Source: an uncultured Paenibacillaceae bacterium
GTDB lineage: Bacteria > Bacillota > Bacilli > Paenibacillales > K13
DNA: 64,000 nucleotides
Direction: 5' to 3'
Assembly: GCA_913056365.1 (NCBI GenBank)
Contig: CAJXLT010000006.1
Location: 152,186-216,185 of the forward strand
Of this stretch, positions 2,329 through 64,000 are shown one piece after another. A program made the position numbers and the translations under genes. Below the pieces are notes generated by a model that had not been told where the DNA came from, did no database searches, and was given only the letters and a program-made list of their open reading frames with translations. Within the stretch, counting starts at the first letter, position 1. The number at the start of each line of letters is the position of its first letter.

Positions 2329-2378
2329 AGTTTTAGAGTTGGTCCTTAATATTGACAGCATAAGTGCGGGAGGCGTAT

Positions 2379-3161: not shown

Positions 3162-3238
3162 GGACCTGCTTTTACAGGTTCGTTTCAATGATGACAGCTT
3201 TCCGCAACATAATGGAAGCGGATACAACCCATTGAATA

Positions 3239-3247
3239 TGGTATAAT
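3239..3247 (+). promoter_or_regulatory. extended -10 promoter element TGGTATAAT
   Basis: Exact TGnTATAAT. It overlaps the ORF-track ATG (3246) of the kinase gene, which argues for a downstream start codon. Confidence 0.5.
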
Positions 3248-3293
3248 GGTTCGACATATGACATTCTGTCTGTCTACTCAGAGGGTGGGTTCA

Positions 3294-5258: not shown

Positions 5259-6234
5259 GGCCGTGCTGGTCGATGACGAGATACTCGTATTGAATCTATT
5301 GAAGAGGATCATAACTGAAATTAAGGATATACAAATTATAGGCGCCTATACAGACCCAGAGCAAGCTTTACTAGAAATCCCTACCCTAGCACCGGATGTA
5401 GTGTTCTTGGATGTGGATATGCCGGCATTGAACGGGATTGAACTAGGTACCAAATTAATAGAGTCAGATACTACAGGGGATATGTCAATTGTCTTTGTGA
5501 CGGCGTATGAGCAGTACGCCATTCATGCATTTAAGCTGAATGCGGTTCATTACATATTGAAGCCGGCCGATCCCGATTCTGTCATAGAAGTTGTGAATAG
5601 GCTGAATCAGAAGCGAGAGCAAGTGCCAGCGAAGGTAAGCGAGAGCGGGAAGATTAACTGCTTCGGCCCTATGCATATGCGCGTGAATGGGCACAAGATA
5701 GACTTCTTAACGGCGAAGGTTGAGGAATTATTAGCATTATTGATCATGCATAGAGACAAAGGGATTAGCAAGTGGCGTATTATTGACGTGCTATGGGAAG
5801 AAGCTTCTATAGAGAAATCACAACAAAATCTGTACACGATGATGTTCAGGTTGAAAAAAACGTTGCGACATGCAGGCATTCTGGTCGATGTGAAGAGTAA
5901 GAATGGTATATATCGAATCGTTCTTGATGATGTGCACTGTGATTTAGTAGAGTTCGACAACTTTGTGGAGAAGAAGCCGCAGGTTCAAGATCATAATTTA
6001 GCCGAATTCGAGAGAGTAATAGCGCTCTATCAAGGGGAGCTGTTCGAAGGGAAGGATTACGTATGGTGTATAAACGAGCGAGAGCGGTATTTCCAACAGT
6101 TCGCAACAATTGTAAACCGTGTTATCCATTATTACAGAGACAATAAATGCTTCGAACAGGCAGATACATTGTTGCATGCCGTTAGACAATACGTAAGTGA
6201 GGAAGAGTATGGGCAGCTCAGATATATAGGTTGA
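5251..6234 (+). CDS. response regulator: receiver domain fused to a SARP-type winged helix and a BTAD domain
   Basis: The N-terminus MIKAVLVDDE, then DVVFLDVDMP and ILKP, are receiver motifs. WRIIDVLWEE...LYTMMFRLKKTL is an OmpR/SARP-type wHTH, and ALYQGELFEG is BTAD-like. The ATG overlaps the kinase stop (ATGATTAA at 5251-5258). Confidence 0.85.
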   Translation: MIKAVLVDDEILVLNLLKRIITEIKDIQIIGAYTDPEQALLEIPTLAPDVVFLDVDMPALNGIELGTKLIESDTTGDMSIVFVTAYEQYAIHAFKLNAVHYILKPADPDSVIEVVNRLNQKREQVPAKVSESGKINCFGPMHMRVNGHKIDFLTAKVEELLALLIMHRDKGISKWRIIDVLWEEASIEKSQQNLYTMMFRLKKTLRHAGILVDVKSKNGIYRIVLDDVHCDLVEFDNFVEKKPQVQDHNLAEFERVIALYQGELFEGKDYVWCINERERYFQQFATIVNRVIHYYRDNKCFEQADTLLHAVRQYVSEEEYGQLRYIG

Positions 6235-6370: not shown

Positions 6371-9300
6371 ATGAAAAAATGGATGGTTATGATGCTGACA
6401 GTGTTTCTCGTATTGACCTATATGCCGCTAGCGCAAGCTGGGGTTGCGTGTGAAACAGGCATCCCGGATGGTGATTTTTGTTATATAGTAAATGATGATA
6501 ATTTAACAGTGACGATTACAGGCTATACAGGCACTGGAGGAGTGTTGGAAATTCCGGGTACTATTGACGGTAACACCGTGACAGTGATTGGGTATTCAGC
6601 CTTTATGTCAAATCAACTAACGAGTGTGACAATCCCAGACAGTGTGCAAACAATCGGAGTAAACGCATTCGCAAACAATCAACTGACAAGTGTAACTCTT
6701 CCGGATGGCGTGACGGAGTTGGGGAGTTTTGCCTTGGCTACGAATCAGTTGACGAGTGTGACGTTCCCGGACAGTGTGACCTCAATCGGAGCTCGCGCTT
6801 TATATCAAAATCCACTCAAGACTGTGGTGATCGATGGAAATGATGAGCAAGGTACCACCATAGGGGATTATGCCATTGGAAGTTTCTCCTTAACGAGTGT
6901 GACGCTCGGAGAAGGTGTGGTCTCCATAGGAACTCAGGCTTTCTATCCGCATCAGCTTACAAGTGTGACGATTCCAGGAAGCGTTAAATCGATAGGGGAA
7001 GGTGCTTTTACAGGGAATCCCGGCGGGGACTCACTCACAAGTGTAACGCTGGGGGAAGGGATCGAAACCATAGGGGATTCGGCCTTTATATTTAATCAGT
7101 TGGCAAGTGTGACGATTCCGGCTAGTGTGACTTCGATAGAAAGCTCGGCTTTTTTAGGGAATCGGATAACAAGCATGACCATTCCCGCCAGCGTCCAAAC
7201 CATAGGTGATCAAGCTTTTTCCAGTAACAAAATGGAACACATTCTGTTTGAAGGTTCTCCAATACTGGGCACTTCAGTTTTCGCACAAACCTGGGGACTC
7301 TATCCAGAATTTGTAGGCTGGTACACCGATCCGGAATTCGCTTCAACATGGGATGGAACAGCTGTGCCAACGGGTAAGGAGGCCTTTGCCCAGAGAAATC
7401 CCGATTCCCCGACAGAGGTGACAGCCGCTGCTGGAGATGGACAAGCGACCGTTTCCTTTACAGCGCCTTCCCATACTGGCAAAAACGCGGTAACAGCGTA
7501 TACTGTCAACGTATATGTGGATGGAGTTGAACAGCAACAAACGACAGGCGTTGCATCACCGATTACGATAACAGGTTTGATGAACGGTACCGCCTATACG
7601 TTTGCAGTCATCGCAACGAATGCGACTGGCGATAGTGTGGAATCCGATGCGACGGATGCGGTGACGCCACTGGCGATATTTGAAACGACGGAAAATGAGG
7701 ATGGGACTTTAACCATCACCAAATACAATGGAACGGAAACCGAGCTCGAAATTCCGGATATGATCGACGGTAAAACCGTGACTGCGATTGGGTTTTCAGC
7801 CTTTTCTTCAAAACAACTGACGAGCGTGACCATCCCGGAGAGCGTCGTAACCATCGGAAGTAGCGCTTTCTCTTTCAATCAATTGACGAGCGTAACATTT
7901 GAAGATGGCGTCGAAACCATAGGGCCGCATGCCTTTTCCCAAAATAGCTTGATAAGCGTGACCATTCCTGAAAGCGTGACCTCGGTAGGCACAGGTGCTT
8001 TTGCGGGTAATATGTCGCTTGAGAGTGTGAACATCTATGGCAATGATGATGATGAGCTGGGCACCAGCATAGGGACCAATGCTTTTGGAAATACCTCCTT
8101 AACGAGTGTGACGCTCGGTGAAGGTGTGACCTCTATCGGGGATGTTGCTTTCCAATACAATCAGCTCACAAGTTTGACCATTCCGGGAACGGTCACCTCC
8201 ATCGGAAGTAACGCCTTTAAAGAGAACTCGCTCAAGAGTTTGACAATCAAGGAGGGGGTAGAAAATATAGGCTCTTCGGCCTTTTCTTCCAATCAACTAA
8301 CTAGCGTGACGATTCCTAATAGTGTGAAGAGTGTGGGGGTATCTGCCTTTTCGAACAATCGATTGGAACGTATCACCTTTGAAGGGACGCCGACGTTGGC
8401 TGTGAATGCCTTTTTACATTATTATACCGGCTTTGAAGGCTGGTATACAGATGCTAGCGTAACGGAAGAATGGACTGATCAATTGTCCCTGCCCGTGAGT
8501 GGCGAATTATATGCAAGGACAACATGGCCGGCTTCGCCATCAAATGCAAGTGCGGAAGCCGGTGATGCCCAAGTGATTGTATCCTTCACCGCACCAACGT
8601 ATTCAGGTGAATCGGAGATCACAGGGTATACCGTGAAGGTGTATGTGGATGGAGTTGAACAATCCGGACTGAAAACAACAGGTGATCAGTCTCCGATTAC
8701 TGTAACGGGTTTAACGAACGGCACAGCCTATACTTTTAAGGTCATCGCATCGAATGCTGCAGGTGATAGTTTAGAATCCGCTGCATCGAATGCTGTAACA
8801 CCGGTCGAAGAATATAATGTGACGTATGATGGGAATGGCAATCACACAGGAAGTGTGCCCACGGATTCCAACTCGTACGAGCAAGGGTCTGAGGTTACTG
8901 TGCTGGACAATGCCGGAAATTTAGAAAAAACAGGTCAATCGTTTGCTGGCTGGAATACAGCATCAGACGGTAGTGGTACACTTTATGAAGCGGGAGATAC
9001 ATTCAACATCGGAAACGTGGGTGTTACGTTATATGCGGTTTGGAAGTCATCCCATGCCGAATTGAACGGCCTGAGCATCAGTGATGGCACATTAACACCT
9101 GGGTTCTCTTCCCAGAAAACAAGCTATACCGTCGACGTGGCCTATGAAGTAAGCAGTGTTACCGTCACAGCAGCCGTGTATGACAGCCATTCCACCTTAA
9201 AGGTGAATGGAACGAGTGTGACAAGCGGCAGTGCTTCATCGGCGTTGAGCCTGGACGAAGGAAATAATACGATTACAGTAGAAGTGACCGCTCAGAATGG

Positions 9301-45826: not shown

Positions 45827-46301
45827 GAGACCACCTCCTTCATAACGGATGTATACTATACCACGGTGAAACCACCGAACGAACGTCTACGCTGATTACA
45901 CCACGAAATGCTAAATTTGTAGTCTGAGTTTGCATTTGGAGGGTGGGGGGCGATCGGTGTTCTCAGTATGTCGTATGGGGAATTGTACAAGTATTAAGTA
46001 GAAAAGCTAAAATGTTTGTCGAATTAAGGAAATGGTTTTAGTATAATAGAAATAAGTATTTTGGATTAAGACTTATTGTCTAGACCAAGGTAGAGAATAC
46101 GGCAATTGTTAGTAGCAAGCAATGGACTTGTGGTACAGGATGGAACGACATCTCGTCTATTATCTTGCCTTGGAAATCCCCAACCTGTAAGAATGAAAGC
46201 ATGTTATCACTACATATAACTTCCCTCTATGGGATGCATGAAGGATGTTCAAGTCCACTAAGCGATCTGTGTAGAATCATTACAGGGAAATGGAGGAGCT
46301 T

Positions 46302-48683
46302 ATGGGAAAAGGAAATCTATCTGAAGAAGATATCAAAGCTAGGTACATTACCCCCGCAATCACTGACGCTGGCTGGGACATTAAGAAACAAGTTAGACTG
46401 GAGTACGCCATTACAGATGGTAGAATCATACTTCGCGGAAATGTAACTGTTAGGGGAAAGAAGAAAAGGGCGGACTATGTTCTTTTTTACAAGAGCAATT
46501 TACCATTAGCCATCGTGGAAGCCAAGGACAATAACCATTCTGTAGGAGCAGGACTGCAACAAGCTATTGGCTATGCCAATGATCTGGATGTGGATTATGT
46601 GTATGCTTCTAATGGTGATGGGTTTGTAGAACAGAACTTAGTTACCGGCGAGGTAAGGGAACTGAAGCTTGAGGAGTTTCCATCACCGGAAGAACTGTAT
46701 CACCGATATTTAATCGATAAGAATATCAATACGGCTGAAGAGAAAGTAATGCTTGAGCCTTATTACTACGTACCAGATTATAAGACACCTCGCTATTTCC
46801 AGCGGGTAGCCATTAATAGAACGGTGAATGCGGTAGCAAAGGGAAGGGATCGTGTTCTACTGGTAAGTGCTACAGGAACCGGCAAAACGTTCATGACGTT
46901 CCAGATTATCTACAGGCTATGGAAGTCCGGCTTGAAGAAAAGAATTCTATTCTTGGCTGACCGGAATGTACTGGTAGACCAGACGATTTCCGGAGATTTC
47001 AAACCTTTTGGCGGCAAGATGACGAAGGTACAGAATAGAAATCTGGATAGCTCCTATGAAATCTATCTGGCTCTGTACCAGCAACTTGCTGGTGATGATG
47101 GAGAAGAAGCTTTCCGACAATTCCAACCGAACTTTTTTGATCTCATTGTCATTGACGAGTGTCATAGAGGAAGTGCCAAAGAAGAATCTGCATGGCGAAA
47201 GATTCTTGACTATTTCTCATCAGCAACTCACATTGGATGTACAGCCACCCCAGTTGAGACCAAAGAGGCATCCAGCTTCACTTATTTTGGTGAGCCTATA
47301 TATGAATATTCTTTGAAACAGGGGATTGATGACGGCTTCTTAGCACCTTATAAAGTCATAAGAATTGGCTTAGATAGAGACCTTGAAGGATACCGACCGG
47401 AAGCCGGTAAGGTGGATAAACACGGCTACGAAATTGAAGATCGAGAATACAATGTGAGAGATTATGATAAAACTTTGGTGATTGATGAGCGAACCAGAGT
47501 CGTAGCATCCAAGATCACAGAGTTTCTAAAGAAGACAGATCGATACAGTAAGACCATTGTATTCTGTGTGGATATAGAACACGCGGAGCGCATGCGACAG
47601 GCACTTATTAATGGAAATAAAGATTTGTATACAGAAAATAATCGATACATCATGCGAATCACCGGTGACAACGATGAAGGAAAAGCTCAACTGGAAAACT
47701 TCATTGATGAAGAAAGTCCTTATCCGGTGATTGCTGTAACTAGTAAGCTCATGACTACCGGTGTGGATGCGAAGATGTGCAAGTTAATTGTGCTGGATAA
47801 TCATTTCGGTGACAACGGTATGACAGAGTTCAAACAGATTATCGGTCGAGGTACACGATTACTTGAAGAATACGGCAAGACTTATTTCACCATCATGGAT
47901 TTTCGTAATGCCAGTAGACTCTTTGCTGACCCTGCCTTCGATGGCAGACCGGAAGTGGTTATTGATCTGGATGGGAATGATCCGGTGGATGAGCCTGAAG
48001 CAGATACAGAAGACAATGAAGGCTATGATCAAAGTGATAGTAATGGTAGTACGAATGAATCCAAAGGTGATTACAACTCAGGAGGAACGGGTGACTTTGA
48101 CGGTGACGGCGATGATAAGCCTCGCAAATATTATGTAGGGGATATTACCGTCAGAGTTCTTTCAGAGAGAGTCCAATATGTCGATAAGGATGGTAAGCTT
48201 ATCACGGAAAGTCTGATTGATTTCACCAAGAAAAACATCCTGCAGCAATATGCCAGGCTGGATGAGTTCTTGAGAACATGGACAGAAGCGGAGAAGAAGC
48301 AAGCCATCATTGATGAATTACAAGACAGCGGTGTACTGCTAGATGCGGTCAGAGATGAACTGGGCAAGACAGACCTGGATGATTTCGATCTCATCTGTCA
48401 CTTGGCATACGATAAAGCACCGTTGACAAAAAAAGAGCGTGCAGAGAATGTGAAGAAGCGTCACTATCTGCACAAGTATTCCGATATGGCCCAGCAGGTT
48501 ATTGAAGCATTGCTGGATAAGTATGCGAATGATGGCATTAGAGAAATTGAGGATACAAAGGTGCTTCAGCTCAAAGAGTTCGCGAGAATTGGGAGTCCAA
48601 TGAAAATAGTCAAAGCCTTCGGTGGAAAGGAAGACTATCTGAAGGCTGTACAGGAACTAGAGAATGAGATTTATTACGCTTAG
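46302..48683 (+). CDS. hsdR: type I restriction endonuclease subunit R
   Basis: The N-terminal PD-(D/E)xK motif is RADYVLFY...VEAKD. Helicase motif I is SATGTGKTF, motif II is VIDECHRG, and motif VI is IIGRGTRL. GGAGGAG precedes the ATG at 46302. Confidence 0.9.
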   Translation: MGKGNLSEEDIKARYITPAITDAGWDIKKQVRLEYAITDGRIILRGNVTVRGKKKRADYVLFYKSNLPLAIVEAKDNNHSVGAGLQQAIGYANDLDVDYVYASNGDGFVEQNLVTGEVRELKLEEFPSPEELYHRYLIDKNINTAEEKVMLEPYYYVPDYKTPRYFQRVAINRTVNAVAKGRDRVLLVSATGTGKTFMTFQIIYRLWKSGLKKRILFLADRNVLVDQTISGDFKPFGGKMTKVQNRNLDSSYEIYLALYQQLAGDDGEEAFRQFQPNFFDLIVIDECHRGSAKEESAWRKILDYFSSATHIGCTATPVETKEASSFTYFGEPIYEYSLKQGIDDGFLAPYKVIRIGLDRDLEGYRPEAGKVDKHGYEIEDREYNVRDYDKTLVIDERTRVVASKITEFLKKTDRYSKTIVFCVDIEHAERMRQALINGNKDLYTENNRYIMRITGDNDEGKAQLENFIDEESPYPVIAVTSKLMTTGVDAKMCKLIVLDNHFGDNGMTEFKQIIGRGTRLLEEYGKTYFTIMDFRNASRLFADPAFDGRPEVVIDLDGNDPVDEPEADTEDNEGYDQSDSNGSTNESKGDYNSGGTGDFDGDGDDKPRKYYVGDITVRVLSERVQYVDKDGKLITESLIDFTKKNILQQYARLDEFLRTWTEAEKKQAIIDELQDSGVLLDAVRDELGKTDLDDFDLICHLAYDKAPLTKKERAENVKKRHYLHKYSDMAQQVIEALLDKYANDGIREIEDTKVLQLKEFARIGSPMKIVKAFGGKEDYLKAVQELENEIYYA

Positions 48684-48719
48684 GACAAAAAACAATAGCA
48701 GACAAGGCAGGTATAGGTT

Positions 48720-50189
48720 ATGGCGATTAGTAATGTTGTCAAGAGAATTCAAGATGTTATGCGCAACGACTCAGGTGTTAATGGAGACGCCCAGAGAATC
48801 GAGCAAATCGTGTGGATTCTCTTCTTGAAAATATATGATGCGAAGGAAGAAGCCTGGGAGCTGTATGATGACAACTACAAGTCTATCATTCCAGAAGGCT
48901 TAAAGTGGAGAGATTGGGCTATTGATCGCAAAGACGGTGAGGCACTTACAGGAGATGCTTTACTTGATTTTGTTAATAATAAGCTGTTTCCTACCCTTAA
49001 GAATGTAGAAATTGATGAAGAAACACCGATGAGTCAAGTCATCGTGAAGTCTGCATTTGAAGATGTCAATAACTATCAAAAGGATGGGGTACTGCTCCGT
49101 CAAGTCATTAATATCATTGATGAGATCGACTTCACAGAGTATAAAGAGCGCCATGAATTCGGTGCAATCTATGAATCATTCCTTAAGGACTTACAGAGCG
49201 CGGGGAATGCCGGTGAATTCTATACGCCAAGAGCTGTTACAGATTTTATGGTGGAGGTGGTCAAGCCAGTATTAGGAGACAGGATAGGGGACTTTGCCTG
49301 CGGTACAGGGGGCTTCTTGACTTCCGTCTTAAAAGCACTGGATAAACAAGTTGGGAATTCTCTCGAAAACAGAGAAATTTATAACAAGTCGGTGTATGGG
49401 ATTGAGAAGAAATCATTGCCGCATATGCTATCTATCACCAATATGCTGATACATGATATTGATGATCCCAACATTCTTCATGGGAATGCATTAGAGGTAG
49501 ATTATAAAGACCTTCGTAAGATGGAGTCTTTTGACGTGATCTTGATGAATCCCCCGTATGGAGGAAGTGAGAAGGAGAGCGTCAAAGTCAACTTCCCAAC
49601 CGAACTGAGAAGTTCTGAAACAGCTGATTTATTCATGAATGTGATCATGTATCGACTGAAGAAGAACGGGCGAGCAGCGGTAATCCTGCCAGACGGATTC
49701 TTGTTTGGTACGGATAATGCCAAATTGAATATTAAGAAGAAACTCTTCAGTGAGTTTAATCTTCACACTGTGATTAGAATGCCTCACAGTGTCTTTGCAC
49801 CATATACGTCAATTAGAACAAATATCCTGTTCTTTGATAATACAGAACCGACAAGAGAAACATGGTTCTATCGTGTGGATATGCCGGAAGGATATAAGAA
49901 TTTCTCTAAGACTAGACCAATGAAGCTGGAGCACTTTAATGATGCTCTCGCTTGGTGGGAGAATCGAGAAGCAATCGAAGTAGATGGCTTCCCGAAAGCG
50001 AAGAAATATACAATCGATGAGATTGAGGGCAGAAGCTATAACATTGACTTATGCGGCTCCCCTAATGAGGAAGAAGTTATCCTAGAACCACTGGATTTGA
50101 TCCAGAAGTATCAAGAAAAGCGTGCTTCCCTCAATGCTGAGATCGACCATGTTCTCGAACAGATTACTTCTAAGCTCGGAGGTAAGTAA
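48720..50189 (+). CDS. hsdM: type I restriction-modification N6-adenine DNA methyltransferase subunit M
   Basis: The HsdM N-terminal domain contains RNDSGVNGDAQRIEQIVWILFLKIYD. The AdoMet motif is DFACGTGGFL and the catalytic motif is NPPYGG. Confidence 0.9.
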   Translation: MAISNVVKRIQDVMRNDSGVNGDAQRIEQIVWILFLKIYDAKEEAWELYDDNYKSIIPEGLKWRDWAIDRKDGEALTGDALLDFVNNKLFPTLKNVEIDEETPMSQVIVKSAFEDVNNYQKDGVLLRQVINIIDEIDFTEYKERHEFGAIYESFLKDLQSAGNAGEFYTPRAVTDFMVEVVKPVLGDRIGDFACGTGGFLTSVLKALDKQVGNSLENREIYNKSVYGIEKKSLPHMLSITNMLIHDIDDPNILHGNALEVDYKDLRKMESFDVILMNPPYGGSEKESVKVNFPTELRSSETADLFMNVIMYRLKKNGRAAVILPDGFLFGTDNAKLNIKKKLFSEFNLHTVIRMPHSVFAPYTSIRTNILFFDNTEPTRETWFYRVDMPEGYKNFSKTRPMKLEHFNDALAWWENREAIEVDGFPKAKKYTIDEIEGRSYNIDLCGSPNEEEVILEPLDLIQKYQEKRASLNAEIDHVLEQITSKLGGK

Positions 50190-50190
50190 G

Positions 50191-51657
50191 ATGAATGCAC
50201 AGGACTTGAAAAATAGTATTCTTCAACTTGCGATCCAAGGGAAGTTGGTTGAGCAGAGAGTAGAAGAGGGAACCGCAAAAGAACTGTTGGAGCAGATTAA
50301 GGCTGAAAAAGAGCAGTTGATAAAAGAAAAGAAGATTAAGAGGGAAAAATCATTGTCAGAAATAACGGCAGATAAAATACCTTTTGATATTCCTGAGAGT
50401 TGGGCATGGGTCAGATTGGGTGAAATTGGAGAAACTAATATCGGTTTAACATATAAACCATCTGATATATCTAATAATGGTACAATTGTTTTGAGGTCGA
50501 GCAATATATTTAACGGTATATTAGTATATGACGACATCGTCAGAGTAGATATGACTATTCCTGAGAATAAAATGTGTAAATCAGGCGACATTTTAATATG
50601 TGCAAGAAACGGTAGTAAAAGACTGGTTGGAAAGGCTGCAATAATCGACAGAGAAGGCATGAGTTTTGGAGCATTTATGGCAATTTATCGGAGTATTTGT
50701 AATAAGTACGTCTTACGTGTAATTCACTCGACTTACTTTAGAAATGCCCTTTTTCCAGAAACAGGTACCACTACAATTAATCAAATTACACAAGACAGTC
50801 TGAGACAGTTCTTATTACCTCTTCCCCCACTAGAAGAACAAAAGCGTATCGTAGCAAAGATCGAAGAATTACTGCCTTTTGTGGAGAAATACGATAAAGC
50901 CTATTCTGAAGTGGAGGAGCTGAATAAAAAGTTCCCGGAGGATATGCAAAAATCGATTTTGCAATATGCTATCCAAGGTAAGCTGGTTGAGCAGCGAGAA
51001 GAAGAGGGAACTGCGGAAGAACTGTATCAGCAGATTCAAAATGAAAAAGCAAAGTTGATTAAGGAAGGTATGCTTAAGAAGCAAAAACAACTGGCTGAAA
51101 TTACAGAAGATGAGATTCCGTTTGATATTCCTGAAAGTTGGAGGTGGGTGAGATTAGGGAATCTATCTGAAAAGATAGGTTCAGGCAGTACACCTACTGG
51201 AGGGAAATCTGTATATAAAGAAAGCGGAATAAAATTTTTGAGATCACAAAATGTTTATAATGATGGATTAAGGTTGGAGAATGTTGCTTATATATCTGAA
51301 GATCAGAACAGGCCAGGAAGTATCGTCAAAGAAAAAGATATCCTATTAAATATTACAGGGGGATCAATTGGGAGATGTGCTTTGGTTCCAGATGGCTTTG
51401 ATATAGCAAATATAAATCAACATGTTATGATTATCAGGAATATATTACCAGGCAATAGGTTTTTTATGCATTATATTTTAATTTCGCCATATGTTCAGTC
51501 AATGATAATGAGTGTACAAGTAGGAGTATCCAGAGAAGGGTTGAGTGCTGAAAAGTTAAAAAACTTTTTGATACCTCTCCCCCCACTGAAAGAACAAATG
51601 CGTATTGTAGCAAAGATTGAAGAGTTAATGCCATACCATAATAAGCTAGTTGATTAG
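50191..51657 (+). CDS. hsdS: type I restriction-modification specificity subunit S (two TRDs)
   Basis: The ATG lies 1 nt after the hsdM stop, with GGAGG upstream. Two variable regions are separated by duplicated conserved helices (LPPLEEQKRIVAKIEELLP and LPPLKEQMRIVAKIEELMP). Confidence 0.9.
   Translation: MNAQDLKNSILQLAIQGKLVEQRVEEGTAKELLEQIKAEKEQLIKEKKIKREKSLSEITADKIPFDIPESWAWVRLGEIGETNIGLTYKPSDISNNGTIVLRSSNIFNGILVYDDIVRVDMTIPENKMCKSGDILICARNGSKRLVGKAAIIDREGMSFGAFMAIYRSICNKYVLRVIHSTYFRNALFPETGTTTINQITQDSLRQFLLPLPPLEEQKRIVAKIEELLPFVEKYDKAYSEVEELNKKFPEDMQKSILQYAIQGKLVEQREEEGTAEELYQQIQNEKAKLIKEGMLKKQKQLAEITEDEIPFDIPESWRWVRLGNLSEKIGSGSTPTGGKSVYKESGIKFLRSQNVYNDGLRLENVAYISEDQNRPGSIVKEKDILLNITGGSIGRCALVPDGFDIANINQHVMIIRNILPGNRFFMHYILISPYVQSMIMSVQVGVSREGLSAEKLKNFLIPLPPLKEQMRIVAKIEELMPYHNKLVD
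50218..51165 (+). repeat. internal direct repeat of hsdS (50218-50427 and 50956-51165), the conserved coiled-coil spacer regions
   Basis: ILQLAIQGKLVEQRVEEGTAKELLEQI...IPFDIPESWAWVRLG matches ILQYAIQGKLVEQREEEGTAEELYQQI...IPFDIPESWRWVRLG. Confidence 0.8.
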
Positions 51658-53943: not shown

Positions 53944-54606
53944 TCAATCTGGATAATGGTTTGAATAGGCAAGATGAGGACTCGTATGCAATCCAATAAC
54001 CTGAGGATACTCTACACCATCATAAGGAGAAGGAGTCGCATTTCCAATGCAAACATAAATCTGCTCATAGGCGGAGGAAATACGTCCATTCCGAAGTATC
54101 TGACCTTCCCATTTACAGTCCTTCACAACAACATTTCCGTTATTTGTATGATGATTGTTCATATCCAATTCTGCAGAACTGAAAATCATCCGTGCCCGAT
54201 GCTTATCATCGTAATGTGTTGAATAATGTGTGAACCTATCCACTTTTACCAAACAAAGACTTCTCCCATTCGCTGCGAAAACATCTGCCAGATCCTCTTC
54301 TCCTTCACAGTGATCCTCCAAGAATTCTAGCAACTCAGTATGGGTCAATGATTCTTCGAAACTCCATTCAATGACGTGAAAATCTTCAGTATGATTCGGA
54401 TAGTCAAACATAGCAGGCTGCTGACCATTGATCTCCCAAACGTCACCGACCCGTACAAACCGCCCATCGATCGTAAGCTCATCCCTTGTCCAAAAGCGAC
54501 CTGCAGAAGTCCTAGATATTGGCCTTATCCATTCTCCATCCTCATTCATCCCAGCAATACAAAACCCATCCCAACTCTTAGTAACAGCTAAAACAATAAA
54601 TTTCAT
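53944..54606 (-). CDS. hypothetical 220-aa protein (possibly of the dual OB-fold type), last gene of the DUF488 cassette
   Basis: The ATG at 54606 (MKFIVLAVTKSWDGFCIAGMNEDGEWIRPIS) is preceded by GGGAGG. The N-terminal CxAG...W(I/V)RP pattern resembles a family annotated as dual OB domain proteins; this is recall and unverified. Confidence 0.6.
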   Translation of the reverse strand: MKFIVLAVTKSWDGFCIAGMNEDGEWIRPISRTSAGRFWTRDELTIDGRFVRVGDVWEINGQQPAMFDYPNHTEDFHVIEWSFEESLTHTELLEFLEDHCEGEEDLADVFAANGRSLCLVKVDRFTHYSTHYDDKHRARMIFSSAELDMNNHHTNNGNVVVKDCKWEGQILRNGRISSAYEQIYVCIGNATPSPYDGVEYPQVIGLHTSPHLAYSNHYPD

Positions 54607-54630
54607 AATCCTTCGACCTCCCATGTAGTT

Positions 54631-55074
54631 TCACACTAAATGGATCGTCCGGATATCCCCCTGAAATTGCTGCAGATACTCCGCTAACAATCGTCGGTGA
54701 CAATGATGTGGTTTATCTTCGCTGCATAAGAAACACGGCTTGCCATCTCCAAGAATCCGGTCAAGATCCTTTTCCACTTTGCGATTTTGCAGTAAATTCA
54801 GATATTTCTTCTCGTACTCTTCCCACCCAATACGTTTTTTCTTAAAATCATTCAGCATTTGTTCCTCAGGAGCCAGATCAAGGAAATGGCTGTACTTTAC
54901 TCCTACCAGTTGCAGAATGTATTCCAAATCGTCCTTCTTCGCAAAACCAGCCAGCTGCGACGTATTATTCAGCCGCGTATCGATCAGATGCTTCACATTT
55001 TCACGTTGAAGTAAATCAACAAATTTGCGTAGCGGCTTCTTAGCAAATCCGATCGTACACAATTCAACAGTCAT
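54631..55074 (-). CDS. DUF488 family protein (canonical type)
   Basis: LCTIGFAKKPLRKFVDLLQRENVKHLIDTRLNNTS matches the DUF488 N-terminal TiGhs...liDvR pattern. The C-terminus has CFLCSEDKPHHCHRRLLAEYL. Confidence 0.75.
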   Translation of the reverse strand: MTVELCTIGFAKKPLRKFVDLLQRENVKHLIDTRLNNTSQLAGFAKKDDLEYILQLVGVKYSHFLDLAPEEQMLNDFKKKRIGWEEYEKKYLNLLQNRKVEKDLDRILGDGKPCFLCSEDKPHHCHRRLLAEYLQQFQGDIRTIHLV

Positions 55075-55084
55075 GTAGAGCCTC

Positions 55085-55528
55085 CTAAAATAGTTTCACT
55101 TGCTCGATTTCCACCGGATTCAGTTCCGTGGATATAACTCCGTACTGAGCATAAAACTCGCCTACTAGTCTGCGGTGACAATACCGGTGATCTTTGCAGA
55201 AGCAGATCAATACCACGTTCTTGCCGTAGATCAATCGCTTATATACTTCACGTAGGGCTCTTACCCTGGTTTCCCATTCCAGCTCTTTCAAAAACCGGCG
55301 CTCATATAGCGGCCACCACTCTCTATAATCCAGCTTATCCTTCCATTCTTGGAGATAAGTTTGGAATAAGTCGGGTGAAGGAGATAGGTCACGAATAATC
55401 TCAGCATCCTTGATCTCAAACCCGGCCCGAGTAATCAGTAATAGGTCAGCGTCAAAATAAACTTTATGCAATCCGTTCGCATTACAGGTATATAGTTTCC
55501 CTTGGGGATTCAGATACTTCGTATTCAA
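55085..55528 (-). CDS. DUF488 family protein (divergent, YeaO-like N-terminus)
   Basis: The C-terminus has VVLICFCKDHRYCHRRLVGEF, and a DLSPSPDLFQTY segment is present. The TTG start lies 8 nt after AGGTGGTG. Confidence 0.65.
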   Translation of the reverse strand: MNTKYLNPQGKLYTCNANGLHKVYFDADLLLITRAGFEIKDAEIIRDLSPSPDLFQTYLQEWKDKLDYREWWPLYERRFLKELEWETRVRALREVYKRLIYGKNVVLICFCKDHRYCHRRLVGEFYAQYGVISTELNPVEIEQVKLF

Positions 55529-57561: not shown

Positions 57562-57593
57562 ATGGACTGTCCTAAGAAGACGGTCCATTTTTT
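57562..57593 (+). terminator. rho-independent terminator
   Basis: ATGGACTGTC pairs with GACGGTCCAT (one G-U pair) and is followed by TTTTTT. Confidence 0.75.
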
Positions 57594-57756
57594 GCACTTT
57601 AAGACGTATTTTCCTTATTCAGTTTCAAGCACTTATAATTCCGATACATTCACTTCCAGCAGTAGAATGCTCTACCACAATCACTTTGAAGTAAAATTAT
57701 GGAGGAATACGCCGACATGTGTCGAATGAACTATGTACCATATTTAGGAGGTACAT

Positions 57757-59043
57757 ATGGCACGGAGAAGAAGAAGGACCAAAGACGCATTTGAAATTGA
57801 GAAGGCTGTGTTCTATTTGTCTGTATTTGTAGGATTGATTGTGTACGCACAAACCAAGAGCTTTACGCAGGCGTTAACGATGATATTCATATCGCTGTTG
57901 TTGGTATTTGCTTTTTTTGTATACAGAGCAGTGAGAGCCAGAGAGCGAATCAGTCGATCCAGAATCGAAGAAATTGACGTAATGGATGGGATCAAATTTG
58001 AGAAATACCTAGATGTCTTGTTCTCGAAGCTAGGGTATAAGACATCTGTGACAAAAGCATCGGGGGACTTTGGAGCAGATGTCATTCTGGAGAAGGATGG
58101 CAGGAGGATCGTAGTTCAGGCAAAGCGTTACAGCTCCAATGTAAATCTTAATGCAGTACAGGAGGTTACAGCGGCTAGAAGCCACTATGGTGCACAAGAA
58201 GCATGGGTTGTAACGAATCAGTATTACAAGAGCTCGGCCATTCAATTGGCTCGATCGAACGATGTGAAATTAATTAATCGAGATGATCTTATCGATCTCA
58301 TACTGCAAGTGAATCCAGAAATGCAAGAAGCGCACCATCGAGTTAATTCCGGGCGTGCGTGCAGAAATTGCGGTCAACCAATGAACCTCATTCAAGGGAC
58401 TGAGCGATCATTCTACCGATGCAACGAATTCCCTAAGTGTAGATACATTGAGGATGAGATTGAAGAATCTCAACAGGCAAAAGCGTCTGTAACTAAGAAC
58501 AGGGTAGCATCGGGGGTTATTAGTGATTACCAGAAAAAATACACGTCGCCTATCAAAAAGTCAATTAGACGTCACATGCCGAAAGTTGTGCTCGTTGCTG
58601 GCATATTGCTAATAGCTTTAGTAGCTAGTATCGTAGGTAACTTGAGCAACCAAGTACAACGTAGCAACGGTGAAGCGCAGTCAACTTTACCATCAACTGT
58701 TGGGCAGGGAAGCGATCAGAAGTCGGTCAACGAAATGGAGCTTGTAGTTACGTTATCGTTGAAGAATTATCCCGACAAGAGATTCCTCAATAAAGCGCTG
58801 ATGGAGAAGCTATCAATTGATGAGGGACAAGTTATTGAGATAACGGGGCCTAATGGTGGAAGTATTTCGGTTCCGGTGTTCTCCGAACCTGAAACCAGTA
58901 CGGTGATTGATATCAATAAAGAACATATTCGCTTGCTCTATCAGGATAGGCAAGAGTTAGGCGTGAATGTTCCAGAGGGCTACTCTAATAATACAGCTGT
59001 TGCGAATGCCTCAGTCACACAAAAAGTTACGATTCGTTTCTAA
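57757..59043 (+). CDS. membrane-anchored Mrr-like restriction endonuclease domain protein with a C4 zinc ribbon and an extracytoplasmic C-terminal domain
   Basis: Two N-terminal TM helices are present. The Mrr_cat core is GDFGADVILEKDGRRIVVQAKRY...AWVVTN. The topoisomerase-type zinc ribbon is CRNCGQPM...YRCNEFPKCRY. A third TM (VVLVAGILLIALVASIVGNL) is followed by a ~130-aa C-terminal domain. Confidence 0.75.
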   Translation: MARRRRRTKDAFEIEKAVFYLSVFVGLIVYAQTKSFTQALTMIFISLLLVFAFFVYRAVRARERISRSRIEEIDVMDGIKFEKYLDVLFSKLGYKTSVTKASGDFGADVILEKDGRRIVVQAKRYSSNVNLNAVQEVTAARSHYGAQEAWVVTNQYYKSSAIQLARSNDVKLINRDDLIDLILQVNPEMQEAHHRVNSGRACRNCGQPMNLIQGTERSFYRCNEFPKCRYIEDEIEESQQAKASVTKNRVASGVISDYQKKYTSPIKKSIRRHMPKVVLVAGILLIALVASIVGNLSNQVQRSNGEAQSTLPSTVGQGSDQKSVNEMELVVTLSLKNYPDKRFLNKALMEKLSIDEGQVIEITGPNGGSISVPVFSEPETSTVIDINKEHIRLLYQDRQELGVNVPEGYSNNTAVANASVTQKVTIRF

Positions 59044-59180
59044 TTGAATGGGGATATTTATGAAAAATCAATCAGAAAGTAACATTTGATTAGTAGGTTA
59101 GAATAACGCAGTTTCAACGGGAATAACCAGCTAATAAGTACTACTTTTTATAAAACTATCTTATTAAAGGATGTTATATA

Positions 59181-62100
59181 ATGAGGCATGTTTTTTATGC
59201 ACCCGATGAAATACCATTGCATTATTTTTACTTTGGTTGGAAAAAAGCAAAAAGTTTTGTAAAACAACAAGGATTCTATGATCCTATTGAAATAAAAGAG
59301 TTTGAACTGGAGTTGGAAAAGAATTTAAGGAAAATTCGGAATAGAATAAGTTCTTTATCGTATGAGATGGCGCCACCTATTGCTTACGGATTTCCAAAAG
59401 GGAGAAAAGATGATCAGTTACGGTTAAGGCCAATGTCAAAGGTTTCATTTATTGATCAAGTTGCTTGGGCTACCATTGTTTTAGTTCTAGGTGAGTGGTT
59501 TGACACGATTAACGATGGTGATGAGGAAGTTTGTGACTTAGAGTGGATGGTTAATTGGAGTTGCAATAATCGTTTGCGCAGAAAGTATTACCCAACTGAT
59601 GATGAAAATAACTTTGTATTTCGGAGGTTGATGGTTAATTATACACACAATGAACTTTACGAAAGCTTTCAACGGAGTCTCCGTTTTCAACGGAAGAAGC
59701 AGGAAGATTATTTTGAACAAATTCTTGATAATTCACCATATGCATATTACGGACAAGCGGACATCACAAAATTTTACCCAAGTCTTCGGATGGATATAGT
59801 TCGTGAAGTATTATTTATTCGTCTGAACCAATTATGTAGTCGTGGAATAACAAGTGTCGAGGTGGTGAAAAAATGGGAAGGGGTACTGTTTAGTCTGTGT
59901 AAAATAAAAACCAATAATAGACATTTATCAGAAATTGAGGTAAAAGCCATCGGAACTGAGACTGTTGACCTACTTATTGATTGTTTACCAACAGGGTTAA
60001 TAGCTTCTGGTTTTTTGGCGAATTGTGTTTTAACCCATTATCTTGATATACCAATAAATGAATTCCGAATAAAAAAAACAAGTGAGGGTAAGGTTACCCA
60101 CTTAACCCGCTATACAGACGATATTATGATTATATCTTCCGATGAGGAGACAATTTATGAGGGCATTCACAAAATCAGGGGCTTACTCAATAGTATTGGT
60201 TTAAGAATGTCGGAAGATAAAACTAGGCCTATATTAAAAGAAGATATGATTAAAAGCATCACTAAAGATATTAAATCTTTATCAACAACTCAGGCTAATG
60301 ACGTTATTGAGCATATCCTGCAGGACTCAATTAAATGTCCTCGCGTAGGTAAATTCGATAATTTACCTAGTTCAACTGCACTAATTGATAAGCTATCACA
60401 ATTAGGTGATCAGCATGTTCGGGCTATGAACCAAAGCGAACTGGAGAAGTATTTAACCGAGCTGATGGAGTTAGTTAATACTGAATTTGCTGCAGATGAG
60501 ATACGTGACGATACTAAATCATCCTTTGCATCTTGGAAAATACGGAAAACTGCCAATGATGCCAGATATCGAGATCTTGATACGAAACAAAGCGTTACTG
60601 AGACACTAAAGCGCATGTATATGAAATATCCTTATAAGTTATCTTTAGTGAGTTGTTACATACTTCACCTCATGGAAATCCCATTTGATGAAAAGGTAGA
60701 AGAATTATTTACTGAGATGCTTAAGTCAGCAAAAAAAAATGATCGACAAGACCAACCAGGTTTTTATGGCTCGTATATGCGTACGCATATTATGTTTTGC
60801 ATAGCTGAAAACTGGAAAAATGTTGGCGCAGAGATTCGGTCTAAGTTGGGAGCTATTATTCAAAGAGAAATAATGGGCTGGTATGATCAGGATACCTACT
60901 TAACGTGGCATGAACAGTATGCAATCTATTGGGCTCTTTCAAATATTTCCATAAACACAAGGGGAGTTCCAATGTTAAATGAAAGTCCAATAGAATTAGT
61001 TAATCGAGCCTATAGGTTGTTTAGAATTATGGATCACGATGTCGAATCAGGTAATGATCCTGTTCTTATAGCACTGATGAGTGAGATATGGCGGAATAAT
61101 CGTCCCAAAAATAAAAGAGAACATGCCACAGAGGATGAAAGTCAATGGATTGGTTGGTTGTGGAAGAGAATTACAAGTAATATGAAAGGTTGGGAATGGA
61201 AGAATGAAGGTCATGGAAGGGTCTGGATTGAGATATCGACCGGGAGAGAAAATGTAATAACCACATATGGATTCAGGAGATTAATGGAACTAGCAGAACT
61301 TCATATAGAAACATTTCTTGAGGATAATAGTATTTCTCATAATGAAGAATATTTTGAGATATCTCCTATCTTTAACGGTGTTATAGATATTCTCAATAAA
61401 TCAGTCACAAAGTGGGTTGAACAATCCAATTCAATGTTTAACGCTCGGTTCTTAAGGGCTATAAGAATGGTTTCAAAAAACTATAAAATAAAAAGCTATC
61501 TAATGAATCGTTTAAGAAATCTCAAGGAAATAGACCGCACATTACTGTCCAAAAAAAATATTATTGGTAACGTTCCGAGTTTTACAAGTGATAAAAATAA
61601 AATAATTCCACTACAAGATTGGGTTGAAATTATAAGTATATTACCTCAAAGGTTAGAGGTTGTCGAAATACCCAAGGAATTGTTGCATCTAACGGAAACA
61701 GAAATAACCCTTTTGTTGATTGAGGTTAGTAAAAGGATTATTGCTGAACTGGATAATCGTGCTAGCCGTGACTCGAATGTGGATATATTCAACAGTCGGA
61801 CACTTTGGTCTAAAACAAGTTTAAATCGTATTGGACTAAGTGTTGAAGACTGGAACAAATGGCGCAATGGAGATCTGTCATTTGGGATTGATTTTACGGA
61901 CGATTTTGTTATTTACTCGGATACTTATTTAAGTGCATGGGCTTATACCAATACTTTCTTCTTAGACGAAGAGTTTTTAATCTGTTACTCATTATCGGTA
62001 CTGCTACTATTACTTATTTCGAAAAAACATATATATTCGGGGGCTGCAGGAATAAAAAGATTGAGAGGGTGGACTAAAATATCTGATGTTATCGCTCATT

Positions 62101-62360
62101 CCGAGTTTCCTTCTACTGTTTTGGCAGAGGTGATAGCAGGATCATTAAATTATCAGAGACCATTCTATAATTATTACGCGGAACACGGGGGTATTGAATT
62201 GCCATTACTGCCATTAGAGAAAGAACCAATTATAAATCTAGCGGATTATCTGCAAGTTTTAGAGGATCATTTGAGTAATGTACAAAGCAGAGTTTTGATT
62301 GGTGATACTGGTTTGCGTGAAATGAGATTTATTGATTTGGATAAAATAGTAAGGGGATGA
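59181..62360 (+). CDS. UG/Abi-type (defence-associated) reverse transcriptase with a long helical C-terminal extension
   Basis: RT motifs occur in order: FPKGRKDDQLRLRPMS, FIDQVAWATIV, YGQADITKFYPSL, LPTGLIASGFLANCVL, RYTDDIMIISS (YxDD) and GLRMSEDKT. About 650 aa of non-RT sequence follows. No intron, retron or LTR features were seen. Confidence 0.8.
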   Translation: MRHVFYAPDEIPLHYFYFGWKKAKSFVKQQGFYDPIEIKEFELELEKNLRKIRNRISSLSYEMAPPIAYGFPKGRKDDQLRLRPMSKVSFIDQVAWATIVLVLGEWFDTINDGDEEVCDLEWMVNWSCNNRLRRKYYPTDDENNFVFRRLMVNYTHNELYESFQRSLRFQRKKQEDYFEQILDNSPYAYYGQADITKFYPSLRMDIVREVLFIRLNQLCSRGITSVEVVKKWEGVLFSLCKIKTNNRHLSEIEVKAIGTETVDLLIDCLPTGLIASGFLANCVLTHYLDIPINEFRIKKTSEGKVTHLTRYTDDIMIISSDEETIYEGIHKIRGLLNSIGLRMSEDKTRPILKEDMIKSITKDIKSLSTTQANDVIEHILQDSIKCPRVGKFDNLPSSTALIDKLSQLGDQHVRAMNQSELEKYLTELMELVNTEFAADEIRDDTKSSFASWKIRKTANDARYRDLDTKQSVTETLKRMYMKYPYKLSLVSCYILHLMEIPFDEKVEELFTEMLKSAKKNDRQDQPGFYGSYMRTHIMFCIAENWKNVGAEIRSKLGAIIQREIMGWYDQDTYLTWHEQYAIYWALSNISINTRGVPMLNESPIELVNRAYRLFRIMDHDVESGNDPVLIALMSEIWRNNRPKNKREHATEDESQWIGWLWKRITSNMKGWEWKNEGHGRVWIEISTGRENVITTYGFRRLMELAELHIETFLEDNSISHNEEYFEISPIFNGVIDILNKSVTKWVEQSNSMFNARFLRAIRMVSKNYKIKSYLMNRLRNLKEIDRTLLSKKNIIGNVPSFTSDKNKIIPLQDWVEIISILPQRLEVVEIPKELLHLTETEITLLLIEVSKRIIAELDNRASRDSNVDIFNSRTLWSKTSLNRIGLSVEDWNKWRNGDLSFGIDFTDDFVIYSDTYLSAWAYTNTFFLDEEFLICYSLSVLLLLLISKKHIYSGAAGIKRLRGWTKISDVIAHSEFPSTVLAEVIAGSLNYQRPFYNYYAEHGGIELPLLPLEKEPIINLADYLQVLEDHLSNVQSRVLIGDTGLREMRFIDLDKIVRG

Positions 62361-63262
62361 CGAGTATGGAGGACGAACTACTTGATAATATTGTAATAAC
62401 ATTAGGACAGTCCAATCATGATCAGCATATACTTGACTATTTGGATCAAGCAAATGGTTATAAATATAAAAATCCTAATGATCAGTTGAATTTATTAGAC
62501 TCTATTCTGCAGACATCTCACCAAGATGGAGCTCAATTTGTTATGTTACCAGAGTTTTTTTTGCCACGTAGGTTCTTGTTTAGTTATATAAAAGAAAGGG
62601 CGATTCGATACCGTAGCATTATTATGGGCGGCTTAGAGTATGGTATGGATCCGAGCCCTGCGCCATCCGGCAAATTCCGTTTAAAGAATGAGGCCTTTGT
62701 TGTAATTCCAGATAATCTATACAAAAAAAATCACATGACAAATGGAAGTGCGACTGTAATCACTGTACCTAAATTACATCCAGCACCAGAGGAAGCGAAA
62801 TTGCTATCTAAAAATGGATATGAATTCGTTAATGGCAACCGAATCTATCATTTTTCCAGTAAGAGATTGGGGAACTTTGCAGTCCTTATATGCTTTGATT
62901 TTCTTAATCTTCCAGTTCAAGCAATCCTACAAAGTCAGATTCAGACCCTCTTTGTGTTAACATATAATATGGATGTTACTGGGTTTATATCAATTGCTGA
63001 AACAGTTCAAAGGTTATTGTTATGCAATGTTGCAATATGCAATACCGGATTCTTCGGAGGGTCAGTAGTTTTTGCACCGATTCGGGAACCACGCCAAAAG
63101 CGGCAAGTGTTACAAATTAATGGAAATGAAATTCACGCTGCGGTTTCTGTACACTTACCAATAAAAGAGGTCTGGAAGGTACAAGATTCAGGTGAAGTAA
63201 ATCACGGAGAGAAAAAATTTTTTCAACTACCACCTGATTTCGGTCGTTTAGCTGCAAGATAG
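62357..63262 (+). CDS. carbon-nitrogen hydrolase (nitrilase superfamily) protein
   Basis: E-K-C triad candidates occur in the expected order and context: FVMLPEFF, VPKLHP and AVLICFDF. The ATG overlaps the RT stop (ATGA). Confidence 0.65.
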   Translation: MTSMEDELLDNIVITLGQSNHDQHILDYLDQANGYKYKNPNDQLNLLDSILQTSHQDGAQFVMLPEFFLPRRFLFSYIKERAIRYRSIIMGGLEYGMDPSPAPSGKFRLKNEAFVVIPDNLYKKNHMTNGSATVITVPKLHPAPEEAKLLSKNGYEFVNGNRIYHFSSKRLGNFAVLICFDFLNLPVQAILQSQIQTLFVLTYNMDVTGFISIAETVQRLLLCNVAICNTGFFGGSVVFAPIREPRQKRQVLQINGNEIHAAVSVHLPIKEVWKVQDSGEVNHGEKKFFQLPPDFGRLAAR

Positions 63263-63527
63263 TAATTGAAAGGATACCCTACATGGTATTTGTTGTCAAA
63301 AAAATGTCGTCAGGAAATGTTATAACTCCTCCGTGTGGCTTTTTGTGATTCTCCGTGTGAGTGTCAATAGCAAGAACTATATATTTCAAAAAACGATGAC
63401 TTACTTTTATGCATTTCGAAGTTTGTCTTCGGGTGGGGTTAATATCTCATTACCAAACAAAATGCATGATATTATTTCCATTAATGAGAAATTGGTACAT
63501 AATAGAAATGCGAAAGGAGAGGTGGTA

Positions 63528-63935
63528 ATGATTCAACACTATAAGCCAATAGATCATATTAAAGTTTCAACTGAGATGGTTGAAGATATTGAGAAGGGAA
63601 TAATAAATTATCTGAAAAGCAATTCTTATATTCACCTAAGTGAAAAAGCATCTCAAATTAAAGAATTTAGATTAAAGTATACAAAAGAAAGTTATGGTAC
63701 TGAGATTGAAAGAGTCTCGGTAGCAATTTCTAAATTTATGGCTCATCAAGAAGCACTATTTAATTTAATGACGAAGGGGAAAATCATGCCTGTTAGGATT
63801 TCTAATGCCCCAAGTATACTGTATAGGTACAGCTTCAAAATTTTTTATGAGGAACAGCGAGGATCGATGACAACATCAGGTGATGTAGAGATATCTATTC
63901 CAATATTCATTCACGAAACGGTTGCGTTGGAATAA
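63528..63935 (+). CDS. hypothetical 135-aa protein downstream of the RT-nitrilase pair
   Basis: A strong SD (AAAGGAGAGGTGG) precedes the ATG at 63528. The ORF-track extension to 63333 lacks an SD. I recognised no motif. Confidence 0.5.
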   Translation: MIQHYKPIDHIKVSTEMVEDIEKGIINYLKSNSYIHLSEKASQIKEFRLKYTKESYGTEIERVSVAISKFMAHQEALFNLMTKGKIMPVRISNAPSILYRYSFKIFYEEQRGSMTTSGDVEISIPIFIHETVALE

Positions 63936-64000
63936 ACTATCATTGGGGGAGAAAACAAGACGGTAATGGGGGAAAGCTTGCGTAGATAATTCGTTACCCC

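Follow-up and report, generated by a model that had tools for sequence, protein, structure and literature searches.

A two-gene reverse transcriptase and nitrilase locus of an uncultured Paenibacillaceae bacterium, probably a class 3 defence module from a sister clade of UG6

To which group of defence-associated reverse transcriptases (DRTs) does a locus belong that encodes a reverse transcriptase (RT) and a nitrilase side by side, as two separate genes? The locus lies in a 64,000-nucleotide stretch of an uncultured Paenibacillaceae bacterium (NCBI GenBank assembly GCA_913056365.1, contig CAJXLT010000006.1, positions 152,186 to 216,185 of the forward strand), here called the window. It consists of an RT gene of 1059 codons (59181..62360, + strand) and, directly downstream, the gene of a nitrilase (C-N hydrolase; 62366..63262, + strand). 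A preliminary description made from the sequence alone had likened the pair to DRT1/UG1. On balance we consider it probable that the locus is a two-gene abortive-infection module of class 3 of the UG/Abi RTs (DRT-type), with an RT from a sister clade of UG6, a DRT-specific nitrilase and a mechanism resembling that of DRT1. Class 3, as defined by Mestre et al. (PMC9226505), comprises RTs generally longer than 1000 aa that occur in fusion or in association with a C-N hydrolase (nitrilase) or a phosphohydrolase.

The RT open reading frame (ORF) is preceded by a Shine-Dalgarno sequence, AAAGGA (59166..59171, + strand), 9 nt ahead of the start codon. The fingers and palm occupy residues ~1-365 (59181..60275), as delimited by Pfam, Foldseek and invariant columns; the Pfam family RVT_1 matched residues 157-353 with 31.2 bits, narrowly over its gathering cut-off of 29.6 bits. 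The catalytic Asp194 (59760-59762) and the YTDD motif (residues 311-314, 60111..60122) are invariant among the 20 full-length homologues over which conservation of the RT was scored. An AlphaFold2 model of the protein (predicted local distance difference test, pLDDT, 81.4; predicted template modelling score, pTM, 0.87) resembles the structures of G2L4, DRT9, GsI-IIC, UG15 and AbiK over its first ~500 aa according to Foldseek. The last ~590 aa are helical in this model and form an all-helical C-terminal domain (residues ~470-1059, 60588..62357), for which neither sequence profiles nor Foldseek found a counterpart in the PDB. The palm with its YTDD motif and the helical non-RT part had both been read from the sequence beforehand, and both are borne out. 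With 1059 aa the protein has the size of a class 3 RT, and its two top PADLOC models, RT_UG6 (81 bits) and Drt1a (77 bits), both belong to class 3. We refer to the clade formed by this RT and its full-length homologues as the UG6-like clade. No kinase-like C-terminus was detected: the C-terminal profile of this clade matched no kinase in the PDB, and Foldseek with the whole model returned RT folds only, DRT1 (9YFD) not being among them in a library that ends at April 2026.

Judged by its sequence, the RT is neither a group II intron RT, nor a retron RT, nor a CRISPR RT. With TIGR04416, the group II intron model, the score was 40 bits (cut-off 300), and with the model retron_St85 it was 29 bits (cut-off 235). 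No intron maturase was found in the protein, nor were other features of mobility (endonuclease, terminal repeats), and no repeats like msr/msd were found at the locus, where the repeats detected were short and of chance-like length. The preliminary description, which had noted the lack of a maturase and of msr/msd repeats, was correct on this point.

For the nitrilase gene two start codons come into question. The ATGA overlap of stop and start that had been proposed does exist at 62357-62360, and translation from 62357 would give 301 aa. The Shine-Dalgarno sequence AAGGGG (62351..62356, + strand), however, abuts the ATG at 62357 and precedes the ATG at 62366 by 9 nt. A database copy of the protein, P0024, has 298 aa, consistent with the start at 62366. 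From this spacing and the length of P0024 it follows that the two genes are probably 5 nt apart and not overlapping, and that the nitrilase probably has 298 aa. Its residues are numbered here on the 301-aa version.

The window nitrilase had no Pfam match. In PADLOC it matched RTasNitrilase (2e-49) and, in its nitrilase portion, RT_UG5-nitrilase (1e-38). Together with the RT_UG6 and Drt1a matches of its neighbour, these agree with the earlier view of a UG/Abi RT of the defence type paired with a nitrilase. The sole sequence match in the PDB was to DRT1 (9YFD), in its nitrilase domain (profile E 8e-12), where Cys1116 stands opposite Cys179 of the window protein. The structural model (pLDDT 84.5) was superposed by Foldseek on amidases of the nitrilase superfamily (4izt at E 3e-12, Nit2 and others), so the fold is that of a nitrilase, as had been proposed. 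The proposed Glu-Lys-Cys triad was likewise found and is part of a tetrad, Glu66 (62552..62554), Lys139 (62771..62773), the second glutamate Glu146 (62792..62794) and Cys179 (62891..62893), all four invariant in 27 nitrilase sequences. Both enzymes of the pair thus keep their catalytic residues. In a multi-group alignment the C-terminal tail motif FFQLPPDFG (residues 288-296, 63218..63244) is aligned with the lid of DRT1 (VKTQPAGF, K1219...A1223) and with FKxxPPG(F/Y) of UG6; UG5 and fused RT-nitrilase proteins are aligned there as well. Within the 27 sequences P292 is invariant and P293 is conserved in at least 90%, and the tail PP(D/G)(F/Y) is common to the window clade and UG6. These matches place the window nitrilase in a DRT-specific nitrilase radiation.

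Relatives of the RT are few. Among 5.8 billion proteins, a word-indexed search returned 20 full-length relatives. When 1.84 billion cluster representatives were searched exhaustively with a profile, ~16 full-length RT clusters scored above 580 bits, followed by a sharp fall to 120-165 bits, where the proteins are canonical UG6 RTs. The named hosts are Bacillota only: Paenibacillus luteus, Cohnella abietis, Brevibacillus centrosporus, Bacillus salacetis and Bacillus sp. FJAT-44742, further Pelotomaculum and Desulfofundulus, and metagenome-assembled genomes of Peptococcaceae and Syntrophomonadaceae. A phage collection contained no match, and a plasmid collection contained a single distant one, in a Pseudoalteromonas plasmid record.

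We compared 15 related loci, 14 of them complete and one (L014) on a contig that stops within the RT gene. A homologue of the nitrilase (~300 aa) follows the RT directly in 14 of the 15, and in the complete loci the two genes overlap by up to 70 nt or are separated by up to 5 nt. Because full-length homologues of both proteins sit side by side in other genomes, the pair is not a chance arrangement, and the co-location predicted by the preliminary description is confirmed. The flanks of these loci include flagellar islands with toxin-antitoxin genes, integrases, JetC, DrmD and plain housekeeping genes; since the flanking genes vary from locus to locus, the conserved unit is that of the two genes.

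An RT with a separate nitrilase gene is by itself an architecture already known from two groups. In the description of UG6 the RT is accompanied by a separately encoded nitrilase (cluster 285) and a DnaG-type primase (cluster 192) (Mestre et al. 2022, PMC9226505), and in that of UG5-small by a separately encoded nitrilase (cluster 249) (PMC9226505, PMC13436386). For comparison with the former we used 80 canonical UG6 loci from metagenomes (L016-L095), 70 of which include 1.1 kb or more of DNA upstream. RT and nitrilase follow each other in this order in at least 63 of the 80, the other contigs mostly ending before a downstream gene would be visible. A CHC2/TOPRIM protein of ~345 aa (PADLOC RTasDnaG-like, 7.5e-92) lies directly upstream of the RT in 56 of the 70 and is missing from the fetched flanks (5 kb) of the remaining 14, so that the DnaG-like primase is frequent, not universal, even in canonical UG6. 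With a profile built from 53 UG6 loci, this primase was found neither in the 64-kb window nor in any of the 15 related loci.

Between the UG6-like clade and UG6 the homology of the RTs extends over the whole protein. Alignment of the two profiles with hhalign (probability 100%, E 4.6e-59, 942 columns, 18% identity) runs through the C-terminal domain to the final residues of both; the identity in the RT region is ~23%. The proteins share a length of ~1050-1100 aa, a ~300-aa nitrilase gene immediately downstream, a serine column in the linker behind the RT core and a motif EI(K/R)xDT(K/R)xSFA. They differ in the catalytic motif, which is YTDD in the window clade and (F/Y)VDD in UG6, and in the C-terminal part, where no casein-kinase-like similarity was detected in the window clade whereas the UG6 profile, with DRT1 as its top PDB match, also matches CK1 at E ~1e-3; a remote, catalytically dead likeness to kinases is a mark of the UG6 C-terminal domain. 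The PADLOC model RT_UG6 covers the window RT over model positions 66-351 of 925 only (~31%), with the 81 bits given above, whereas canonical UG6 RTs reach 540-620 bits along almost its entire length. The match to this model is weak for each of the 20 clade members (best E 1.8e-26), and since the PADLOC v2.0 models match such RTs with so little coverage, automated annotation may miss the locus.

When the RT region (462 columns) was analysed by neighbour joining (Poisson distances, 200 bootstraps, few outgroups), the UG6-like clade, together with the locus L015, was supported by 96.5% of the bootstraps. UG6 is monophyletic at 99% without the clade of the window RT. The UG6-like clade joins two proteins, P0065 (1299 aa) and P0067 (1325 aa), in which the RT and nitrilase modules are fused (92%), and all of these together with UG6 are separated from DRT1 and UG5 at 64.5%. 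The N-terminal RT part of the fused proteins scores up to 405 bits on the window-clade profile, and they have the same type of nitrilase and the same linker serine; unlike the window pair they are single polypeptides, and their middle region matches the profile only in separate stretches. The tree and alignments suggest that the window RT belongs to a rare sister clade of UG6, restricted to Bacillota and without the DnaG-like primase. This assignment replaces the earlier one to DRT1/UG1, as the nearest group is UG6; in agreement, BBI33370.1 of Cohnella abietis, a 56% identical homologue of the window RT, is listed with UG6 in the myRT paper (PMC8934634, Table 3), where it was ambiguous by hidden Markov models (diversity-generating retroelements, UG6 or UG23), was placed in UG6 by pplacer and has a nitrilase neighbour. 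Of the earlier expectation of a poorly described or undescribed anti-phage variant, one part stands, namely a rare and distinct primase-less clade beside UG6, with a fused sister lineage and poorly caught by current models; the split architecture was published before for UG6 and UG5-small, and the novelty is modest.

The pair can also be compared with DRT1 (9YFD). Both systems consist of a class 3 RT and a nitrilase in the order RT, helical domain, nitrilase, and they share the nitrilase tetrad and the C-terminal lid motif. DRT1, however, is a single polypeptide of 1229 aa, whereas the window has two ORFs, the first ending with its stop codon at 62358-62360; the RT regions are ~18% identical, and the window locus lacks a Drt1b-like membrane partner. 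UG5-small (DRT5S) resembles the window in its division into RT and nitrilase, the latter from the same radiation (PMC13436386), but its RT model RT_UG5_small (PDLC03781) has 631 positions against the 1059 aa of the window RT. Membership in UG5-small was rejected: this model, which does detect a UG5 RT, was not among the best 25 of 28-32 PADLOC matches. UG5-large (DRT11) differs in being a fused protein.

How the pair may work can be considered in the light of DRT1, the closest system that has been characterized, whose mechanism, described as still unresolved in the preliminary description, was published in outline in 2026 (PMC13275509). DRT1 synthesizes semirandom DNA without a template, primed on its own Ser402, and the DNA adducts cause tetramers and filaments to assemble around a core of nitrilase. 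A C-terminal lid that is domain-swapped (K1219, A1223) shuts the site of the nitrilase, which is the effector; phage factors such as Dda of T4 trigger the system, leading to abortive infection, and the exchange C1116A abolishes defence. DRT5S and DRT5L are also template-free and protein-primed, so that all three class 3 enzymes assayed behave in this way (PMC13275509).

A candidate region for protein priming in the window RT is the linker motif LPSSTALIDKLSQLGDQ (residues 395-411, 60363..60413), which follows the RT core and is strongly conserved across the UG6-like clade with the consensus LPxSTAxIDKLSQxGDQ. Among the 20 homologues P396 and S406 (Ser406, 60396-60398) are invariant, and S398 and T399 are conserved in at least 90%. 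In the 12 sequences printed for the column of Ser406, a serine is present in the UG6-like clade, L015, the fused relatives and UG6, and not in DRT1 or UG5. The pLDDT at the motif is ~70. The priming site is not transferable from DRT1, as Ser402 maps to a position that is not conserved in the window clade, and we regard the linker around Ser398, Thr399 and Ser406 as a candidate.

We favour a DRT1-like mechanism in which the effector is supplied in trans, with protein priming, DNA-dependent assembly and trigger proposed by analogy. The RT would make short template-independent DNA covalently primed on itself, possibly at Ser398, Thr399 or Ser406 of the linker. Nitrilase oligomers would be kept dormant, with the lid closed, by the DNA adduct and by the all-helical domain at the C-terminus, until a phage replication factor frees the nitrilase; the freed enzyme might then hydrolyse an essential metabolite bearing an amide or amine group, and the infection would be aborted. 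The surroundings are consistent with a role in defence, as the window contains a type I restriction-modification (R-M) system, the candidate system PDC-M45 and an Mrr-like gene, and related loci have JetC, DrmD, Mrr, toxin-antitoxin genes and integrases nearby. Several observations speak against this picture. The DRT1 chain was not matched when the profile of the window RT was searched against the PDB, and DRT1 Ser402 aligns, in a weak alignment, with Pro387, ~19 residues upstream of Ser406, where there is no conserved hydroxyl. The usual presence of a DnaG-like primase in canonical UG6 hints that this branch of class 3 is perhaps not protein-primed. The association of UG6 with defence was rated inconclusive by Mestre et al. 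(PMC9226505), and several relatives (Cohnella, P. luteus) lie among ordinary genes and not in defence islands.

The neighbouring genes form an island of lower GC content, 0.371 at 57600-64000 against 0.473 in the remaining window, near the type I R-M system (46290-51657), as had been pointed out before. Between the two lie a DuOB (dual OB) gene and then two DUF488 genes (53944-55528, - strand), which correspond to the A and C components of PDC-M45, and the region of 46-64 kb reads as a single defence island. Upstream of the RT is the gene of a membrane-anchored, Mrr-like (type IV-like) nuclease of 428 aa (57757..59043, + strand; Mrr_cat at 6.5e-30 and a zinc ribbon) with hydrophobic segments at ~35-60 and ~272-296. 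Downstream is a gene of 135 aa (63528..63935, + strand), an ORF without Pfam or PADLOC match. A terminator-like hairpin (57562-57588), the sole such site on the + strand in 57.4-64 kb, lies immediately ahead of the AT-rich block, where it probably bounds the island on the left and may be the point from which an Mrr-RT-nitrilase transcript begins. Copies of Mrr_cat were found near 4 of the 15 related loci and at two UG6 loci (L028, L042). They vary in position and strand: in the Brevibacillus locus (L012) at 2264-3367 (1.8e-31), in L003 at 4495-5346 on the - strand and in L005 as a fragment at 6760-7026. A DEDDh 3'-5' exonuclease gene, not present in the window, stands beside RT-nitrilase systems of three lineages, namely the UG6-like clade (L012, 10299-10922), a fused RT-nitrilase on Leptospira plasmids (L096, 5181-5897) and 17 canonical UG6 loci (for example L020, L033 and L042); such an exonuclease could trim the DNA adduct. 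Farther away, at 6371-31234, there are four consecutive very large ORFs (1558, 1165, 2391 and 2796 aa), three of which were scanned and carry SLH anchors with LRR_5, Cadherin-like and Flg_new repeats; the GC content climbs to 0.53-0.56 in 24-30 kb. Proteins with SLH anchors recur in the loci of Cohnella and P. luteus, which, like the closest homologues, fits a host of the Paenibacillaceae type.

Other explanations can be set against this evidence. The locus may be just another member of a catalogued system, a divergent UG6 that lost or never needed its primase, as the full-length homology of the RTs, the identical gene order, the pplacer assignment of the Cohnella homologue and the 14 canonical loci that also lack a primase within 5 kb would allow. 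The 99% monophyly of UG6 without the window clade, the 92% union of that clade with the fused proteins, the partial match to RT_UG6, the absence of the primase from 15 of 15 loci and the YTDD in place of F/Y-VDD make this rather unlikely. A bolder proposal, which we hold to be possible and put forward tentatively, is that the clade and its fused sister lineage form an unnamed class 3 UG group that does without the primase of UG6. Priming by the RT would then take place on a Ser or Thr of the linker that UG6-like RTs have in common (Ser406, Thr399), and the helical C-terminal domain would recruit the nitrilase, as effector, in trans. One could also think of an operon of three or four genes, with the Mrr-like membrane nuclease as a second effector or sensor beside RT, nitrilase and the 135-aa protein. 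All these genes are co-directional in one AT-rich block, the terminator-like site stands before the Mrr-like gene with none after it up to 64000, and Mrr_cat recurs near related RTs. The closest relatives (Cohnella, P. luteus, L008), however, have no Mrr gene nearby, that of L003 is on the opposite strand and 3 kb off, and the ORF of 200 aa that contains the 135-aa gene in frame, used as query, had no homologue in any of the 95 loci; Mrr nucleases are moreover common as stand-alone defence genes, whose co-occurrence in islands is expected. The larger operon is improbable: the two flanking genes pointed out earlier are present but are not conserved partners, and the Mrr-like gene is probably a separate defence gene, which may be co-transcribed with the RT.

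That the RT copies a dedicated non-coding RNA (ncRNA), as do DRT2, DRT9 and retrons, with the complementary DNA regulating the nitrilase, is quite improbable, even though the upstream intergenic regions of the relatives are long (300-900 nt). The window itself offers just 137 nt upstream of the RT, where no significant fold was found (z-score -0.74); a second folding z-score was -0.8. A search of 44-64 kb of the window against Rfam gave no match at E<=1, and blastn-short with the flanks of eight loci found no intergenic sequence conserved across the clade. It returned only a short match of Pelotomaculum and Desulfofundulus at the RT start and one between the loci of C. abietis (L001) and P. 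luteus (L002), which are 87% identical over 99 nt spanning the RT start (~75 nt of it upstream), without an equivalent in the window; this stretch, which could be counted in favour of a template, may be a promoter, a 5' untranslated region or a sign of recent transfer. On the Rfam, blastn-short and folding results and the chance-like repeats, a conserved or structured ncRNA at the operon was rejected, in line with the template-free synthesis of the three class 3 enzymes assayed (PMC13275509). Highly improbable, finally, is the absence of any defence role, that is, a selfish or housekeeping RT next to a metabolic amidase. The inconclusive defence enrichment of UG6 (PMC9226505) and the loci among ordinary genes fit such a view, but the nitrilase is of the RT-associated clade and matched no metabolic nitrilase by sequence, the distribution is patchy, with AT-rich islands beside R-M, Wadjet, DISARM, toxin-antitoxin and integrase genes, and features of mobility are lacking.

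Among the DRTs, those of class 3 that combine RT and nitrilase are the least understood. The two-gene module favoured here opens no new category of defence, but as a compact, primase-less version from Bacillota with two polypeptides it is open to direct study in B. subtilis. Its RT and nitrilase could be purified separately and recombined, which is harder with the fused DRT1, and setting the clade beside UG6 systems that have the primase would reveal whether this enzyme takes the place of protein priming. If the clade and its fused sister lineage are indeed an unnamed group, they would provide a naturally separable pair of RT and effector, from Gram-positive hosts, for the discovery of the nitrilase substrate.

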